Source: Lama guanicoe
Taxonomy: Eukaryota
Length of the DNA: 64,000 bases
NCBI GenBank assembly: GCA_013239625.1
Contig: MU053184.1
Coordinates: forward strand, 140,220 to 204,219
Direction: 5' to 3'
Part shown: piece by piece, positions 7,008-53,018 of the stretch
Numbering within the stretch: the first letter of the stretch is position 1
How the letters are laid out: each line of letters begins with the position of its first letter
The notes under the pieces: generated by a model
What the model was told of the DNA's origin: nothing
Databases searched by the model: none
Seen by the model: the letters and a program-made list of their open reading frames with translations, nothing else
Program-made: the position numbers and the translations under genes

Positions 7008-7403
7008 TTTTTTTAAGTTGAAGTATAGTCAACTTACAATGTATTAATTTCTGGTGTACAGCGTAATGATTCAGTTATATGAATATATATATATATATTT
7101 ATATTCTTTTTCATTATAGGTTACTACAAGATATTGAAAATAGTTCCCTGGGCTATACTGTAGACAACTTGTTGTTTATCTATTTTATATATAGTAGTAT
7201 CTGCAACTCTCAGACTCCCAATTTATCCCTTCCCACACCCTTTCCCCCCTGGTAATTATCAGAGAAATGCAAATTAAGCTACAATGTGGTATCATCTTGC
7301 ACTGGTCAGAATGGCCATCATTAAAAAGTCCACAAACGATAAATGCAGGAGCAGGTGAGGAAAAAAAGGGAACCCTCCTACACTGTTGGTAGGAATTTAG
7401 TTT
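7008..7403 (-). mobile_element. Young L1 3' end with 5' inversion (minus 3'UTR 7008-~7255, plus-strand ORF2 piece ~7253-7403)
   Basis: Poly(T) then 'aagttgaagtatagtcaacttacaatg'. Orientation flips at 'ggtaattatcagagaaatgcaaatt' with TAA microhomology. Confidence 0.9.
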
Positions 7404-7409
7404 GGTTTC

Positions 7410-7838
7410 TTTTTTTTTTTAATTGAAGTATATAGTTGATTTACAATATTGTGCTAATTTCTGGTGTATAGCATAGTGATTCAGTTGTACACACACACAC
7501 ACACACATATATATATATTCCTCTCCATATTCTTTTTCATTATAGGCTATCACAAGGTACTGAATATAGTTCCCTGTGCTGTACAGTATATATCTGTATT
7601 ATATATAGTAGTGTGTATCTGCAAATCCCAAACTCCCAATTTATCTGTTCCTCATCCCCACTCCTCCTTGGTAACCATAAGTTTGTTTTCTGTCTGTGAG
7701 TCTGTTTCTGTTCTGTAAATAAGTTCATTTGTGTCACTTTTTTGATTCCTCATAGAAGTGATGTCATATGGTATTTTTCTTTCTCTTTCTGGCTTTCCTC
7801 ACTTAGTATGACCATCTCCAGGTTCATCCATGTTGCTG
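7410..7838 (-). mobile_element. 5'-truncated L1 3' end (cetartiodactyl type)
   Basis: T11 then 'aattgaagtatatagttgatttacaatattgtg...ttcatccatgttgctg'. 15-bp TSD ctggaagcaggtttc (6993-7007) / ctggaagtaggtttc (7839-7853). Confidence 0.92.
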
Positions 7839-11139: not shown

Positions 11140-11858
11140 TTAGAGAAAACAGTGTGGAGATTCTTTAAAAGACTAAATATAGATTTACCATATGATCCAG
11201 CAATCCCACTCCTGGGCATATATCTGGAGGGAACTCTAATTCAAAAAGATACATGCATTACAGTGTTCACAGCAGCACACAATAGCCAAGACATGGAAGC
11301 AACCTACATGCCCATCAACAGATGATTAGATAACGAAATTATGGGGAAATATATACAATGGAATACTACTCAGCCATAAAAAAGAATGAAATAATGCCAT
11401 CTGCAGCAACATGGTTGGACCTGGAGATCATCATAGTAAGTGAAGTAAGCTGGAAACAGAAAGAAAAATACCACATGATATCGCTTATATGTAGAATCTA
11501 AAAAAAAAAATGAAACAAATGAACTTATTTATAAAACAGAAACAGACTCACAAACATAGAGAACAAGCTGATGGTTACCCAGGGGAAAGGGGGTTGTGGA
11601 GGGATAAATTGGGAGTCTGGGATTTGCAGATACTAACTACTACATGTAAAATAGATAGACAACAATGTCCTACTGCACAGCACAGGAAACTATATTCAAT
11701 ACCTTGTAATAGCTTGTAATGAAAAATAATACCAAAAGATGTATGTATATATATATAAATATATCTATATCTATATATGTATATATCTGAACCACTGTGC
11801 TGTACACCAGAAACTGACACAACATTGTAAACTGACTATACTTTAATTTAAAACAAAA
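11140..11858 (+). mobile_element. Young 5'-truncated L1 (ORF2 C-terminus + 3'UTR)
   Basis: 'ccatatgatccagcaatcccactcctgggcatatatc', 'aatggaatactactcagccataaaaaagaatgaaataatgcc', ending 'acattgtaaactgactatactttaatttaaaacaaaa'. Confidence 0.93.
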
Positions 11859-12021: not shown

Positions 12022-12130
12022 TGAGATATATATATATGTATAGGGGTATATACATGTATGTATGTGTGTGTGTGTGTATATATTTATAAATATATATACA
12101 CACAAATTTATATATTTATAAATATATACA
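12022..12130. repeat. (TA)n/(TG)n compound microsatellite
   Basis: Directly visible. Confidence 0.85.
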
Positions 12131-15489: not shown

Positions 15490-17450
15490 AAGCATCTAAC
15501 AGGCGAATTCTTTCTTAAATAAAAGCTATAAATTCCAGACAAAATACCTAAAACAACTCCTTGAGGGATTCGGAGACCGAAACAAGATAGGCAGGTTTTA
15601 GAGATGACTTGGACCTTGAAGCAAGCCACTCCCATAGGGTAAGATCCATGGCTCAGTGGGAGCTGAAAGGCAAATACAAAGCCCTTTGTTTTGGGGCAGA
15701 GGAATTAGAGGTAAGAGCCTAGGTCAACCAGGGATGCCAGGGTGTGAGGGGGAAACCCTGAAAAGGAAAGAGCTAGTGAAGAGGAACTCCAAATTCTGTG
15801 TTTAAGCTCAGCCCAAGTTTCTGGCTGATTCCTAAATTAGGAATGCGTGGGACCAGCTTAGAAGCATCATGCAACTCAGGCTTAAAAAATTGAACTGAGG
15901 TCTGCACTCTCCCCACCTCAGGCTTGACAGTTTGTAGTTTGAGTCTAACCAAGTGAATTGTCTAACCAAAATAAAATGCCAACACTCTTTGAAAAAGTAG
16001 AATATAATCCAGAGTCTTTACAACTTAATATTTACAATGGCTAGAATACAGTACAAAATTACTCAACCTATTAAGTGCCAGGAAAGTATGACCTGGTCTC
16101 ATGGGAAGAAACAATTAATAGACACCTGGGCTGCTGTAATAAATGACCACAAACTGGGTGGCCTCCAACAATAAAGATTTATTCTCACAGCTGTGGAGGT
16201 CAGAAGTCTAAAATCAGTGTGTCAGCAGCGTTGTTTCCTCCTGGAGGCTCTGGGGAAGAATTTTTTCCATGCCTTTTTCTTAGCTTTTGGTAGCTGACAT
16301 TCCTTGCTCTTCCTTGGTTTGGGGCTGCATGTGTCCAGTCTCTGCCTCCGTCTTTACACAGCCCTCCCTTCTGTGTCTTTACCAGTCACATCTTCCTGAC
16401 CTTTCTCATATAAGGATGCATCGTATTTTACACCTAAAATTCTATATCCTGCCATATTAGCATTCAAATATAAACATATAACAAAAGTATCTACGGGTCT
16501 TCAAGGCCACAAAAATCCACTCTGAAAATACTTTTGAAGGAAGTATTCAAATACACAGAGAAACAAATCTAGTAGATCCTGAAAGAAATATATAAAATGA
16601 GGTGGACTAAATATTTTGGCAAAGGCTGGGTGTTTTTTGCTTCTAGAGTTAAAACTAAGAGAAGCAAAAAGAGAAAGTATATGCTTAACAATCCAGAATT
16701 AAAATTGTACACAGTGTCAAGAGGAGAGTCTGGAATGAGATATGTAGGTTGGTAGAGAAACCAAGGGATAGGAGAGCAGGGTAAAGTTTTTGTTTTGCTA
16801 GGGGGAAGCTGTAGGTATCCATATTTAAAAAGAAGGCAGGAGACGAGATTAATGAGAAAGCAGAGAATGTTCAATAAACTGAAATTAGAAACTAAAGTTG
16901 TAGCAACAGATTTTCATATATACTCATTATGAATCTAAATCCTCAAATTAAAAAGGCAGAGATTGCCAGATTAGATTAAAAATCCAGTTCTATGTTTTTT
17001 ATAAGAGGTTAACCATAATGAAGTAGAAAATTGAAAACAAAAGGATGGGAAAAGATATATCAGGTCAATATTAATGAAAAGAAAATTGATTTAATTATTC
17101 TAGTAGCAGAAAAATTAGGTTTTAAACATGAGAGAAATCTTAGGAGTTGAAAAGATCACTATATAATGACAAACAATTTGATTCATCAAGAAGATATAAC
17201 TTCTAAACATGTATGCAATTAATAAAATAGCCCTAAAATACACAAAGCAAAACTTGGTAAAACTGTAGGGATAAATGGATAAGTGCCCCATCATAGTGGA
17301 GAATTTCATCTCACCTCTTTTGTTTGTTAATAGGCTAAACAGACAAAAAGGTTGGTGAAGATGCAGATGATTTGAATGACAAAACTATCAGAGATAATCT
17401 AATGAAGATATATGAAATTCTGGAGCCAAAAATTAAAGAAAACTTGTATT
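15490..17450 (+). mobile_element. Old L1 (L1M-type) 5' region to ORF2 endonuclease domain, interrupted by an MLT1
   Basis: ~16930-17400 keeps EN motifs in decayed form (GWEKIYQ.., DHYIM..IHQEDIT.., PKIHKAK.., PIIVENF). 5'-UTR-like 'ccagagtctttacaacttaatatttacaatg'. Confidence 0.8.
16126..16430 (-). mobile_element. MLT1 (C/D-like) LTR fragment
   Basis: 'gggctgctgtaataaatgaccacaaactgggtggc...atttattctcacagctgtggaggtcagaagtctaaaatc'. Confidence 0.85.
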
Positions 17451-17558
17451 TAGTAGGTATTTAAGATGTTTAAAACTGGAGAGCTGTTTTTCTTTTTCTT
17501 TTTTTAGTGTATTACTTATATTTAAAAAATGTTACCTTCTTTTTGAGTGTTCTAATCC

Positions 17559-18962
17559 TGTGTTAGTTTTCTCTTGCTGTGCAGCAAATTACCTTAAATG
17601 TAATGGTTTAAACAACCCACACGTTTCTGTAGGTCAGAAGTCCAGCATAGTGTGGCTGGATTTTCTTCTTAGGGTGTCACCATGCTAAAATCAGGGTATC
17701 CACCAGGGCTCAGTTCTTATTTGAGGCTAAGGGTCCTTTTCCATACTCACTGGTCAGTGGTAGACTTCAGTTCTTCCTTGTTGAAGAAGTGAGGTTCCCA
17801 TTTCCTGGCTCACTGTCAGCTGTCATCTGCTCTCTGCTCTTAGGGCCACCCATACCTTTTCTCATGTGGCCTCTCCATGTTCAAGCTAGCTGTGGTTCAT
17901 GCAATCTTTCTCTTCTACCCTCCTCTTATGCCTCCGACTTCCTCTTATACCCTCCTCTCCTGCCACCTGATAAAGTTCTCTCCTTTTAAGGCCTCATGTG
18001 ATTAAATTAGTCCCACCTGGAAAATCTCCCCTTTTTTGCCAGGGGAGGGGAAGGTACTAGTATTATTCCTGTTTTTCTTTTTAATACAATTTTTAAAGAT
18101 TATGTTCTACTTACAGTTGTTACAAAATATTGGCTATATTCCCCATGTTATACAATAGATCCACGTAGCCTGTCTTATACCCAGTAGTTTGTACCTCCCA
18201 CTCCCCCATCTCCATATCACTGCACCCCGCCCCCACCACTGGTAACCCTAGTTTGTTCTCTGTATCTGTGAGTCTACTTTTCTGTTATATTCACTAGTTT
18301 GTTGTATTTTTTAGATTTCATATGTAAGTGATAGCATACAGTATTTGTCTTTCTCTGTCTGACTTATTTAACTTAGCCTAATGCCCTCCAACTCCATCCA
18401 TGGTGTGACAAATGGCAAAATGTGATTCATTTTTATGGCTGAGTAGTATTTCATTGCACGCATAGTTAACCAATCCACAACAAAGGAGACAAGAATATAC
18501 AGTGGAGAAAAGACAGCCTCCTCAACAAGCAGTGCTGGGGAAACTAGACAGCTACATGCAGAAAAAATGAAGTCAGATCACTCTCCAACACCACACACAA
18601 AAACAAACTCACAGTGAACCAAAGACCCAAATCCAAGACCAGATACCACAAACCCCTAGAGGAAAACACAGACAGAACACTCCCCGACATAAATCACAGC
18701 ATTATTTCTTTGGATATTAGTAGACAGAGGATGTTGCAGCCATCAAACCATCAGCCACTGCAGCTGTGTACCCCGTGGGGATTCAGGATGGAGAAAAATA
18801 GGATCCTGGGGCTTGAGAAGTCCCGACAATCTCTCTTGTTGAAGGTCTGCTGTGCCATGTCGTATAACTAAATCATGGGAGTGATAGATCATTAAATTCA
18901 CAAGAATCATAAATTAAATAGTGGACTCTTGGGGGTCATGCCTAGAAATTCTGCCTACCATA
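17559..18962 (-). mobile_element. MLT1 (E/F-like) LTR, split by the insertion at 18036-18824
   Basis: Begins 'tgtgttagttttctcttgctgtgcagcaaattacc' and ends 'cctagaaattctgcctaccata'. The halves rejoin across the insertion. Confidence 0.8.
18036..18824 (-). mobile_element. Composite retro-insertion: L1 3' end (minus, ~18036-18464) + L1 ORF2 piece (plus, ~18465-18715) + ERV LTR piece (~18715-18820)
   Basis: Three recognisable modules bounded by a degenerate TSD, gaaaatctcccctttt (18020-18035) / gacaatctctcttgtt (18825-18840), 12/16 identical. Confidence 0.8.
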
Positions 18963-18964
18963 AC

Positions 18965-19520
18965 CCCTCACCCATTTTTTCACCCTTGAGTCCTGTTATT
19001 TGTGTGTGTGTATGTGTGTGTGCACGCTTGTGAGGGTGAAATTCCATGACACAGTACTTTTGTTGGAATACATAATCTGTTCTATAAGAGCAATGATTGC
19101 ATTTCATAATTTACCATGTGATCGTATCTTTATCCTATAGGTATGAGTGATTTCATTTTCAGACATATGGGAGTTTTTGTAAATCTATCATTTTGTAATC
19201 TGTATTATGGTCACAGTAACAGACTGTAAAATATTAATTCTTTGGAATTTATGAAAACTTCATTTGAAGCCAGTAGCCATTACATAGGTTATTTTTATAA
19301 AGGTTCTATTTTTTTTCTCAAAATGAATTTCTGATCTCCATTTGATATAAATTTTTATTAACTGCTATTAAAATTTTTTACATTTTAGTTTGATGTCTAC
19401 ATCATCTATTAGTTTCTGAGAGAAGTATGTTAAAATCTTCAACTACAACTAATTAATTATTCCCATAGTTTTGATGTTTCAAGGCTATGTTTTAGGTACA
19501 TACAGGTCATTATATATTCC
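18965..19520 (-). mobile_element. Old L1 fragment, apparently continuing after the pseudogene at ~20876-20970
   Basis: 'catctattagtttctgagagaagtatgttaaaatcttcaactacaact...tttcaaggctatgttttaggtacatacagg' is reverse L1 endonuclease-region sequence. Confidence 0.6.
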
Positions 19521-19521
19521 C

Positions 19522-20861
<1,340 letters not shown>

Positions 20862-38579: not shown

Positions 38580-40249
38580 ATACTGAGTTTTCCAAGGACA
38601 CACAGCTAGTAAGTGTGTCAGGCTTCAGAGCTGATCTCTTCCCAGGATTTCATGCTGGTTAATTGCGGGGGCGAAGTTTGCCGGAGATCCACTCGGTGTT
38701 CCAGAAGTTTGCTTTCAGACTCAGGCCTGCCCCTTTCCACTTGGAAGTTGGATTTGTCTGTCAGGCCATTTCTTCCCACCTCAGCTCTTCCAATATGGCT
38801 CCCCTGTTGCTGTATTTGCCAAGTCTCCTCACTGCTGGCACTCCCTGACAGCCGTGTGTCCCTTGGCCTGATTGCAGCCCTCCCCCTACCGTGACTGCTG
38901 GCACTCGGGTGTTATTAGGCCCCAGCTGTCTCCTCCTCCGCTTCTTGACCCTTCACTGCTCCCCTGGGCCCGGGCTGCTGGGTCTGTCTGCCTTGACCAC
39001 TGGCCTTCAAGCTCAGGTCTGGGCCCCTGGCGATGGCTCCCTCCCAGCACTGCTTTGCCTGCCTCTGCCCAACCTGGTCGGTAAATTCATCCCTGGCTGT
39101 GGTCCCTGCACCCCGCCTCCACACCCACATTCACAACTCGACAGTCGGCGAGATTTAATCAACTAGTTCATTGAGCAATCCAGGTGTATACCCACCTGAT
39201 TTGAAGTGATTTGGCTTAATGAAGATGATCACGTGACCCAGGTTTTCTGGGGCAGCCCTAATTTTAAATATTATGTCTCTTTGTCCTCCCAAAAACTGAA
39301 TACTGAAAATGCCACTATTTTGGCACATAAGCACCATCTTCTAGATTGCCTCAGGCAACCAGGGGAAAAAAAAAGGCGTACATCCCTAGTCAGACAATGT
39401 GCCCTACCTTTGGTTCAGGACACATAGGTCTCTGTTAAATCTTTATTTTTGTCAGCGTGGGTGAGCCTAAGAGAAAACAGCTTTTTTGTTTGTTTTTAAA
39501 AATCTCATCAGTATTGGTGTCCTGTTGGTGCCTCTGCTTTCTGTAAAAAGCACTTTATTGTCTTCATTGAATGGCCAGCATGTTTCTTGCTGAGGAGTGG
39601 CAGTTTCTGTGGTCTTTGTATCTCTAGTCAGCACCTAATACCATTTGTTGTGACAACCTAAGTGAAGTAGACACCTTCCCAGTGAGATCTGGAGGGTGTA
39701 TCTTCGGTGTTCTGTTCTGTCTTCTAAGCTCCCAGGGAAATCACATTCCTCGCAAATGTCCTTGGCTTTGGCTCCTCAGCTGCAAATGCCTGCCCCCGCC
39801 CGCCCTGGAGGGGAGCTGGGTGAGACCATGCAGAGACCTCAGGACCTCGGAGCACCCCAGCCCTAGGCTCCCCAGCCCCGCCCCAGCTGCATCCTGGTCT
39901 AGTTTGGCCCTCCAAGAAGACATTGCTTCTCCCGCAGGTGGCCTCCCAGGCCTGGTTCCAACCACTGAGGAAAGAAAATCTCCCCAGAAGGAAGGATATT
40001 TTGAGGGGGCACAGCTGCCAGAATGGGGAGGCTTGGCAGAGAGAAGTAGTCCCTGCAGTGGGTTCTGAGGACCACTGGTTCCCTGAGATGCTCCCCAAAG
40101 GGCTCTGTGGCCAACAGGCTTTACAGTGGCTCAGGGCAGCCACTGGCTTATGAAGTCTCTGAGAAGTTCTGTATTACAGTCACCAGCTTCTCCTCAGTAT
40201 ATTTGAACACAGCACCCCTCTCTCATCTAACAACCTTTCATATCTTAAA

Positions 40250-45783: not shown

Positions 45784-46221
45784 TTCATTAGTTTCCTGGG
45801 GCTGCTGTAACACATTACGACAAACTACGTGGCTTAAAATAATGGGAATTTATTCCCACACAGTTGTGTTGTCCGGAAGCCTGAAATCAAGGTGCAGCAG
45901 GGCCGTGCTCCCTCTGAAGCTTCTAGGGAGGGATCCTTCCTTGCGTTCTCCAGCTTCTGGTGTCCCCGTGTACTTTGGTTTAGGACTGCAGGTCTCCAAC
46001 CCCTGCCTCTGTCTCCTTGTGGCCTTCTTCCCTGTATGTTGAAGTCGCAAATCTCCCGCTGCCTTTCTCTTCCTGGATTTAGGGCCTCAGTCTAGGATGG
46101 TCTCATCTCAAGATCCTTAACTAAATTATATCAGTGAAGACCTTTTTCCAAGCAAGATCACATTTCCAGGTGCTGGGGGTTAAGACATGTCATTTTGGGG
46201 ACCTCCATTCAACCTGCTGTA
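45784..46221 (-). mobile_element. MLT1C-like solo LTR
   Basis: 'attagtttcctggggctgctgtaaca...catctcaagatccttaactaaattatatcagtgaagacctttttccaagcaagatcacatt..ccattcaacc'. Confidence 0.88.
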
Positions 46222-46754
46222 GACCTGGATGCCACCAGCTGGGCTCCGCCAGACCTGAGGAGAAAGCATTTGATGTGCAGAGGAACAGATGCAGGCAGAA
46301 GGGATGTAGGGAAGAACCCTGTGCGGTAGAAACGGAGCAGGAGGCAGATGCAGAGAAGGACGGGAGCATTTAGCAGGAGAGATGCACTGTTGGCACATCA
46401 GGGGCCAGGACTCTGGGACGAAAGCCACATCAGACACCTGCCATCAACAGCCAACGAACGTGTGCTGAGGTTTTACTCTGAGGCCCGACAGGGAAGTCAA
46501 GGTGTCTGAGCCAATGCTGAGGCCCAGGGTTTGCAGACTGAGGACAGGAATTACCAACGGAAAAGAGCCCTGGATACAAAGCACGCTGAGACCCAGGTGA
46601 CACCACAATGGTGAAAACCAGCAGAAAACTAGGATGGGGTTGGATGGTGATCGGAGACGTAGTTTCAAGTCCAAAATTTTCTCAAGGGGCAGACAGCAAA
46701 CACTCAGAAAGACAGGCTAGGTGTTGGAATTAATCATTGTCATTGATAAATAAT

Positions 46755-51660: not shown

Positions 51661-52970
51661 AGTATTCTGGGCCAGGCCTCTCTCAAGGCACCAGTGATCT
51701 TTTGGGAAACTTACGCACCAGATCTTGGCATACCCTGTTTGAAATTCCTCTTCAGCTCCGTCCACCACCCCTGTGCACACTTGCAGGCCTCTTTCTTCCA
51801 GGAATGATTACGCAGAAAATGGGAGCTGACAGTGATAGATGGACTTTTCCATTTTCTGCTAACGCAGCTATGAAGTCAGAGCCCATTTTAATGAATGTCC
51901 ATTAAGGTCAAATTTGGAAAGCAGGTATTAAGAGTCATTGCCGCTAATTACACCCTGAGAGCTCTATTTGTATTTTCAAATTGGATAAAAAGGTTAGTAA
52001 AATGGAACATTTCAGCACAGGCTGGCTCCCGCTTCGCTCTCCAAGTTTTCGGAAATGATCAGCTGCCCAAACTTGCTGAGAAATAATGTTCTGCCTTCTT
52101 CCTGCCTCATGCCTCACAGGTGAGCCAGCACCACGAGGAGCGGCTGCCTCTTGAATCCTGTCAGTCTCTGGCAGATCCGATTACATCTGGGACCCTTAAG
52201 TGTACTTGAAGCAAAAGGCGCTGGTCTATTTTAATCCTTCTCCTTCTAGAAACTCGAAACTGTAAGGAGAGTCTTCCCGCTGACAGGTGGCTCCAGAAAA
52301 GTCGTCCATCTGCTGCTAATTACGGCAGAGAAAATTCACACAGCCCAGCTTTCAGTTTATTTGCTAAAGATCTCCAAAGGTGTAGCTGTCTTCCCAGATC
52401 ACAAGGCCTCACAGTATTACATCTATAGAGCCTGTTAATTATTTAAATAATTTAAAACCCAGGGCAGCTGGGAGCATTTAACAGAAGCCAGGCTGGCTAA
52501 GGCATGGTTTGATGTTCCGTGGTGGCCGAGGGAGAGGGGTCTGTTCTCACTGCTCAGAGTTGGCACTCACAGGATTTTGTTTTTCTCCTTCCCCTTCTTT
52601 CCAAGGGAAACTCAGAGAGCGGCAGGACTAGGCAGAATCAGCCCCATTTCAATCTTGATTTGCTTCGATTCCCAAACTCCAGGTCACCTCTGTCTCCTAA
52701 CTGTAGTCTCATCTGTAAAATGGGTATAATCTTCTCACTTCCTAACCCAGAAGGCTGCTGTGATCTTGGAATAGGATAACTTCCCAGAAAGTGCAGTGTA
52801 TAGAGTAAAGTAGTATGTAGAGATCTTTAGGCCCATTGAATAAATAGAAATGATAAAGTTTGATAGATCAGATGATGAAATAATTTAACAATAGAAGAAC
52901 AGATATTTTTTTCCTTCCCTGTACTTTTCTTTCCTTTCTTTCATGCATAATGTATTTATATGTATATGTA

Positions 52971-52971
<1 letters not shown>

Positions 52972-53002
<31 letters not shown>
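52972..53002. repeat. (TG)15 microsatellite
   Basis: Directly visible. Confidence 0.95.
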
Positions 53003-53006
<4 letters not shown>

Positions 53007-53018
53007 ACTATATACATA

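Follow-up and report, generated by a model that had tools for sequence, protein, structure and literature searches.

Promiscuous editing of long, near-perfect double-stranded RNA by ADAR converts about 50% of sites, far above polymerase error rates, and the avian retrovirus A>G hypermutants described in reports from the 1990s represent ADAR-edited RNA that was fixed by reverse transcription. Genomic fossils of editing enzymes are well documented for APOBEC3 (G>A) but not for adenosine deamination. In ADAR hyper-editing clusters, G is depleted upstream of the edited sites, as set out in the available text of Porath (2014; PMC4365171). For endogenous retroviruses, the accessible part of a screen for APOBEC describes other cluster types as "very rare" (Knisbacher 2016; PMC4866542), and a review passage says of ADAR as a mutator of retroelements that its role "has not yet been determined" (Goodier 2016). 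A 2025 paper on A>G-rich endogenous MMTV considered ADAR and, in its accessible portion, reports that no ADAR context was found. A search of CC-licensed PubMed Central and bioRxiv texts returned no report of an A>G or T>C hypermutated LINE copy, which is weak evidence of absence. With regard to architecture, 31% of human- and chimpanzee-specific L1 insertions are given as 5'-inverted and ascribed to twin priming in the available sections of Kojima (2010) and, for twin priming, Meyer (2010). L1 chimeras are documented to arise by template switching and by RNA ligation; in the cases covered by the accessible text of PMC13174262, the second RNA has the same orientation as the L1 RNA.

Here, we describe one-strand T>C hypermutation in the inverted piece of an old LINE-1 (L1) insertion within the window, i.e. 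the whole 64-kb stretch of DNA that was analysed. The hypermutation is real and statistically clear. Shown here are how the locus is built, in which direction, how densely and from which ancestral state the bases changed, and that the changes are confined to the inverted piece. The tract is most likely an adenosine-deamination fossil, for which ADAR is a plausible agent. The features of the locus, in window coordinates, are the following:

18072–18456, minus strand: LINE-1 3' end (ORF2 C-terminus, 3' UTR and short A-rich tail), from translations and protein and blastn matches.
18455–18457, no strand: inversion junction of the two L1 pieces, with antisense 3'-module homology up to about 18456 and sense ORF2 homology from 18455.
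18455–18715, plus strand: LINE-1 ORF2 fragment from downstream of the reverse transcriptase (RT) domain, inverted with respect to the 3' module, from blastn to L002 and L003.
18461–18685, plus strand: strand-coordinated T>C tract with 24–25 sites versus L002, about half of the ancestral T, from site tabulation versus L002 and homologue alignment.
18686–18715, plus strand: unedited outer end of the inverted fragment, in which 10 of 11 reference T are still T.

Natural L1 copies for comparison were collected by degenerate pattern, which yielded four loci (L001–L004) from metagenome contigs and none from either the viral or the genome contig collection. The minus strand of 18072–18456 encodes ..MKYYSAIKMNHILPF..SQTEKDKY.., followed by the 3' UTR and an A-rich tail that appears as T5-C-T5 at 18072–18082 on the plus strand. 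A protein search with the 67-residue read-through of this module, with longer proteins requested, gave 12 matches at E ≤ 1e-3, all of them short ORFs, and no full-length ORF2. At the nucleotide level, the module matched L001 over 115 nt (77%) and L004 over 97 nt (73%), both on the opposite strand. To the right of the junction, the plus strand of 18455–18715 reads as sense ORF2 (..KG.KNIQW.KDSL.NK.CW..) and matched L002 with 78.2% identity over 262 nt (E 7e-55) and L003 with 77.5% over 218 nt. Together with the Pfam family RVT_1, which was found upstream of the fragment-homologous part in L003 (96.8 bits) and L004 (67.1 bits), these matches bear out the initial annotation of 18465–18715 as an L1 ORF2 fragment. 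Pfam, which has no model for this part of ORF2, returned no family for either the fragment-homologous protein or the 3'-module read-through.

In L004, RVT_1 (3–410) precedes the fragment homologue (from 1013), which is followed by about 725 nt and then by the 3'-module homologue (1973–2069). This order indicates that a single kind of element supplied both pieces in the window and that some 0.7 kb is absent between them. The two pieces lie in opposite orientation and form a 5'-inverted L1, the inverted one stemming from further 5' in the L1. At the junction, about 2 nt (TG, 18455–56) can be assigned to either piece and may be microhomology. Blastn against the collected L1 copies gave no match beyond the right end of the fragment at 18715, and no further copy of the ORF2 piece was detected in the 64-kb window. 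A search for a target-site duplication (TSD) of at least 9 nt found no shared word between 18020–18072 and 18690–20500, and the best local match was a 7-mer that lies within the element. The extent of the insertion event is therefore not proven; the duplication of an old element may have decayed.

Several other repeats were recorded in the course of the comparison. Two more-diverged L1 3'-end fragments lie at 7258–7835 and 11145–11641, with 67–73% identity to L001 and L004 and about 70% to the module at 18060–18465; of these, the one at 11 kb provided the control comparison with its third reference. At 18997–19022, 52967–53007 and 12055–12088, short (TG)n/(CA)n microsatellites match a (CA)n tract in L004 and gave spurious blast hits. 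In minus orientation, L002 carries an insert of about 230 nt that ends in an A-run at approximately 250–460 of the locus, just after the part compared, which we take to resemble a tRNA-derived SINE of cetacean/ruminant type. The sequence that follows L003 is presumably BovB-like. Neither the L002 insert nor the sequence following L003 had a match anywhere in the window.

The segment 18471–18700 (230 nt) is composed of A104 C66 G36 T24, with dinucleotide counts of TT 0, TC 11, TA 7, TG 6 and CG 1, which agrees exactly with an earlier count by hand (24 T, 66 C, no TT and 11 T before C). Its T fraction of 0.104 is the minimum of all 230-nt segments taken in steps of 10 across the window, and the TT-free run that starts at 18466 spans 236 nt, compared with 139 nt for the runner-up. 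The second T-poorest segment, 46221–46450, was rejected as a further case of hypermutation, being plain G+C-rich sequence with skew and without L1 homology. Likewise rejected was 38801–39060, the A-poorest segment, with an AA-free run of 188 nt, which is G+C-rich, pyrimidine/purine-skewed and without L1 homology. As indirect support for the sequence, 80–88% of the 31-mers sampled from 17000–20000 were present in 19 public runs (4 organism labels, 8 studies), a figure that covers the surrounding 3 kb, not the 230 nt specifically; the assembly itself may have been built from some of these runs.

For site tabulation of the fragment, L002 and L003 served as references, and L001, which has an internal deletion, and L004, which aligns over only about 70 nt, were left out. 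Both usable DNA references belong to other lineages and are about 78% identical to the fragment. Across 18468–18701, comparison with L002 gave T>C at 24 of 46 sites, C>T at 2 of 41, A>G at 4 of 102 and G>A at 11 of 44. By Fisher's test, the excess of T>C was significant against both A>G (p = 3e-11) and C>T (p = 1e-6). L003 gave a similar T>C count of 22/47, and the columns in which both references agree (198 of 233 kept) gave T>C 17/38 and C>T 1/34. Differences at 18548, 18621 and 18665 are private to L002. The changes are thus overwhelmingly one-directional T>C on the plus strand, as first proposed, and they constitute a dense one-strand A>G cluster on the minus strand, as is typical of ADAR hyper-editing. 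Their extent has to be restated: about 22–25 T>C changes, roughly half of the ancestral T, are present, and these are not "most" of the C residues.

The L002 piece has at least 8000 protein homologues, and the best 120 of these were aligned to polarise the changes. At 12 of the 13 codons in which T>C alters the amino acid, the residue of the T codon is kept by 104–118 of these 120, and at the remaining one F occurs in 58 and Y in 40. The residue found in the fragment itself occurs at these 13 codons in only 0–6 of the 120. Since the homologues keep the residues of the T codons, the T bases are ancestral, and the T>C changes have introduced stops plus proline and threonine replacements into a conserved ORF. 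Two TG>CA cases (18478–79 and TGG>CAG at 18530–31), along with a surviving CG at 18685–86, fit the earlier suggestion that edited TG sites became CpG and later decayed. Such decay at edited sites implies that the T>C changes came first and that the event is old.

A G>A cluster on the sense strand of the retroelement, as expected from APOBEC3, was not found: G>A versus L002 is far below T>C, and 3 of the 11 G>A differences are TG>CA steps and another 3 are private to L002. Neutral ageing and APOBEC do not account for the pattern, in line with the initial annotation. An APOBEC trace on minus-strand cDNA was also considered and rejected, as about 6 G>A versus 3–4 C>T are left after removal of CpG steps and L002-private differences, which is not significant. 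The six non-CpG G>A differences on the plus strand of the fragment are located at 18464, 18489, 18546, 18565, 18617 and 18672; on a minus strand that was once cDNA, they would have the polarity of APOBEC, and their imbalance against C>T is too small to be relied upon.

The limits of the tract are sharp. The first T>C is found at 18461, about 6 nt from the junction, and the last at 18685. Of the span originally claimed, 18465–18715, the tract accounts for all except the final 30 nt or so (18686–18715), which retain T, and it begins slightly further left. The single T>C in this outer end, at 18708, is ambiguous, as the homologues have L in 64 and F in 53 cases. On the other side of the junction, the nearest 60 nt are T-rich, yet only 0–1 of 21–25 reference T have changed to C. 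The adjoining 3' module, which had been proposed as an internal control, is clean: over 118 nt compared with L001, T>C affects 3 of 44 sites, C>T 4 of 31 and A>G 4 of 25, and the T>C difference between tract (24/46) and control (3/44) has p = 2e-6. A>G shows no excess in the 3' module either, with 4/25, 1/22 and, where two references agree, 0/15. As the tract stops at the junction, the changes belong to the inverted piece and not to the locus, which counts against a process acting after insertion.

When read on the minus strand versus L002, the edited fraction by upstream base was 12/17 for U, 6/8 for A, 4/12 for C and 2/7 for G. Upstream U or A was thus associated with editing at 18 of 25 sites versus 6 of 19 for C or G (p = 0.014), a comparison that is confounded by CpG reversion. 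The C class in particular is deflated because an edited TG becomes CpG, which can revert to TG. The sparing of TC that had been reported persists as a trend only, with 2 of 7 sites edited versus 22 of 37 elsewhere (p = 0.22); its direction is that of the upstream-G depletion in Porath (2014). By downstream base, the edited fractions versus L002 were 8/15 for G, 5/6 for C, 6/8 for A and 5/15 for U, i.e. without the downstream-G enrichment of ADAR. Overall, the neighbour bias fits ADAR weakly: it is compatible with the enzyme and is not proof of it.

T>C on the plus strand equals A>G on the minus strand, and the edited strand could have been either antisense RNA or nascent cDNA. In twin priming, both cDNAs copy the L1 mRNA, so the plus strand of the inverted piece is RNA-sense. 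Under this route, ADAR acting on the L1 mRNA predicts plus-strand A>G, which was seen at only 4 of 102 sites. The initial annotation had taken the minus strand as the RNA template of the insertion. That step is not established, as a 5'-inverted architecture normally reflects twin priming with L1 sense as the template, and the proposed polarity requires that antisense L1 RNA was the template of the piece, reached by a template switch, by RNA ligation or as the transcript of an older inverted L1.

We give roughly even credence to the reading in which antisense L1 RNA was edited by ADAR and then reverse-transcribed to provide the inverted piece. One old LINE-1 retrotransposition event would have joined the minus-strand 3' module head-to-head to an ORF2 piece of opposite orientation. 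On the minus-strand version of that piece, about one adenosine in two would have been deaminated before or during the event and read as G, thus producing T>C on the plus strand. The piece would have existed as antisense L1 in RNA, base-paired with sense L1 RNA and promiscuously A-to-I edited by ADAR, whereupon the L1 reverse transcriptase would have copied the edited RNA with C opposite each inosine. Two routes may be envisaged: the reverse transcriptase could have switched template from L1 mRNA to antisense L1 RNA, or the two could have been ligated; alternatively, the entire RNA could have been the transcript of an older, already inverted L1 that ended at the L1 polyadenylation site. Which enzyme acted, that the edited strand was RNA, and how it came into the insertion are inferences.

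Antisense RNA is favoured as the edited molecule because about 50% of sites are changed over 225 nt in a sharply bounded tract, as is known of ADAR on long double-stranded RNA, because mismatches or mutant enzymes were needed to edit hybrids efficiently, and because the other cDNA of the event is clean. Against it, a template switch onto antisense L1 RNA or the mobilisation of an inverted progenitor is much rarer than twin priming. A local inverted partner for double-stranded RNA was not found within 2 kb, where only chance matches of at most 25 nt touch the insertion. In cell assays with L1 RNA, the available text of Orecchini (2017) reports no editing in over 2.5 kb and restriction by ADAR1 that is independent of editing.

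Possible though unlikely is twin priming of a single L1 mRNA, with the nascent minus-strand cDNA deaminated by ADAR at dA within the RNA:DNA hybrid to give sense T>C. This would make use of the commonest route to a 5'-inverted architecture (31%, available sections of Kojima 2010), and its polarity fits without an extra RNA or a rare insertion route. The biochemical precedents come from the accessible text of Zheng (2017), in which dA within a long DNA/RNA hybrid of perfect match is a substrate of ADAR2 in vitro and the ADAR1 deaminase keeps its neighbour preferences when acting on DNA, with TAG (94%) at the top of the range and GAC (19%) at the bottom; moreover, the L1 ribonucleoprotein is bound by ADAR1 according to a passage in Orecchini (2017). 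However, the accessible text of Zheng (2017) does not show conversion of about 50% of matched dA:U pairs in hybrids; there, editing was efficient only with dA-C mismatches or mutant enzymes. In addition, the first cDNA of the event, which is the plus strand of the 3' module, shows no A>G excess (4/25, 1/22 and 0/15). Ordinary twin priming with ADAR deaminating about half of the nascent-cDNA deoxyadenosines paired with L1 RNA is something we regard as rather improbable, and we know of no natural germline example of ADAR cDNA deamination. If it were true, the locus would be a natural germline trace of ADAR as a DNA mutator acting on a retrotransposition intermediate.

Less credible is locus-specific mutagenesis of DNA after insertion, for example by a WA>WG-biased, error-prone repair synthesis or by deamination in a germline R-loop, which we hold to be quite improbable. 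In its favour, the mutated A tends to have A or T upstream (18/25 versus 6/19). A or T in that position is the motif of polymerase eta, and strand-coordinated clusters are known from repair synthesis. Nevertheless, the tract ends about 6 nt from the junction and the T-rich sequence to its left has only 0–1 T>C among 21–25 T, a boundary that a process acting on the locus need not respect. Furthermore, some 22 changes of one type at half of the sites over 225 nt far exceed the misincorporation rates known for polymerases.

Twin priming combined with misincorporation by the reverse transcriptase, i.e. dG opposite rU from a skewed dNTP pool to yield sense U>C, likewise has the polarity that twin priming predicts, and retroviral reverse transcriptase yields U>C hypermutants in vitro when dNTP pools are biased. 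This account is nonetheless highly improbable, given that the 3' module from the same event is not hypermutated, that the first 30 nt or so from the top-strand primer are clean, and that a depletion specific to dATP in a germline nucleus is ad hoc. Finally, we give next to no credence to the absence of any hypermutation, i.e. to C residues inherited from a source L1 subfamily, which the initial annotation had itself named as the observation that would overturn it, or to an alignment artefact: the only two DNA references come from other lineages at about 78% identity and the synonymous T>C at 18517, 18520 and 18526 is supported by L002 alone, with C in L003, but 17 T>C sites are backed by both references, and the 0–6 of the best 120 homologues that share the fragment's residue at the 13 nonsynonymous codons, together with stops and proline or threonine in a conserved ORF, contradict such a subfamily.

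The locus works as a strand tag, as the direction of the changes identifies the strand that was edited. Counting such clusters genome-wide in L1 pieces with and without inversion could reveal what share of "5'-inverted" L1s derives from antisense RNA and whether ADAR touches cDNA. A single locus is an anecdote that speaks to existence and not to frequency.

When compared with known systems, the locus differs from the avian A>G retroviral genomes in that those are exogenous and carry inverted duplications, whereas this is a germline LINE-1 fragment. With APOBEC3 retroelement fossils, as presented in the available text of Knisbacher & Levanon (2016; PMC4866542), it shares a strand-specific enzyme signature frozen in an integrated copy with a damaged ORF, but their signature is sense-strand G>A, in contrast to the sense-strand T>C of the present LINE. 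Like the ADAR clusters of double-stranded RNA (Porath 2014; PMC4365171, accessible text), it displays dense one-strand A>G over a few hundred nucleotides, with a non-significant trend towards fewer edited sites after an upstream G. Those clusters, however, are RNA–DNA differences, whereas the present one resides in genomic DNA, lacks downstream-G enrichment and has no partner within 2 kb.

With 5'-inverted L1s from twin priming, the locus has in common the pieces of opposite orientation, the upstream origin of the inverted one, the internal loss of L1 sequence and what may be a short overlap at the junction; it is unlike them in that the TSD search was negative, some 0.7 kb between the pieces is absent and one strand is hypermutated with the wrong polarity for editing of L1 mRNA. 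ADAR action on DNA in hybrids, in the portion of Zheng (2017) available, is known only in vitro and mainly with dA-C mismatches or hyperactive mutants, yet it would produce dA>dG in the cDNA, following the neighbour preferences of ADAR, and this would match the polarity observed here under twin priming. Lastly, U6/L1 and other chimeric L1 insertions (PMC13174262, accessible text) differ in that the second RNA here would be antisense L1, so that the product mimics a twin-priming inversion. They share with the antisense-RNA reading that we prefer, and which requires it, the copying of a second RNA onto a truncated L1, at its 5' end, within a single TPRT (target-primed reverse transcription) event.
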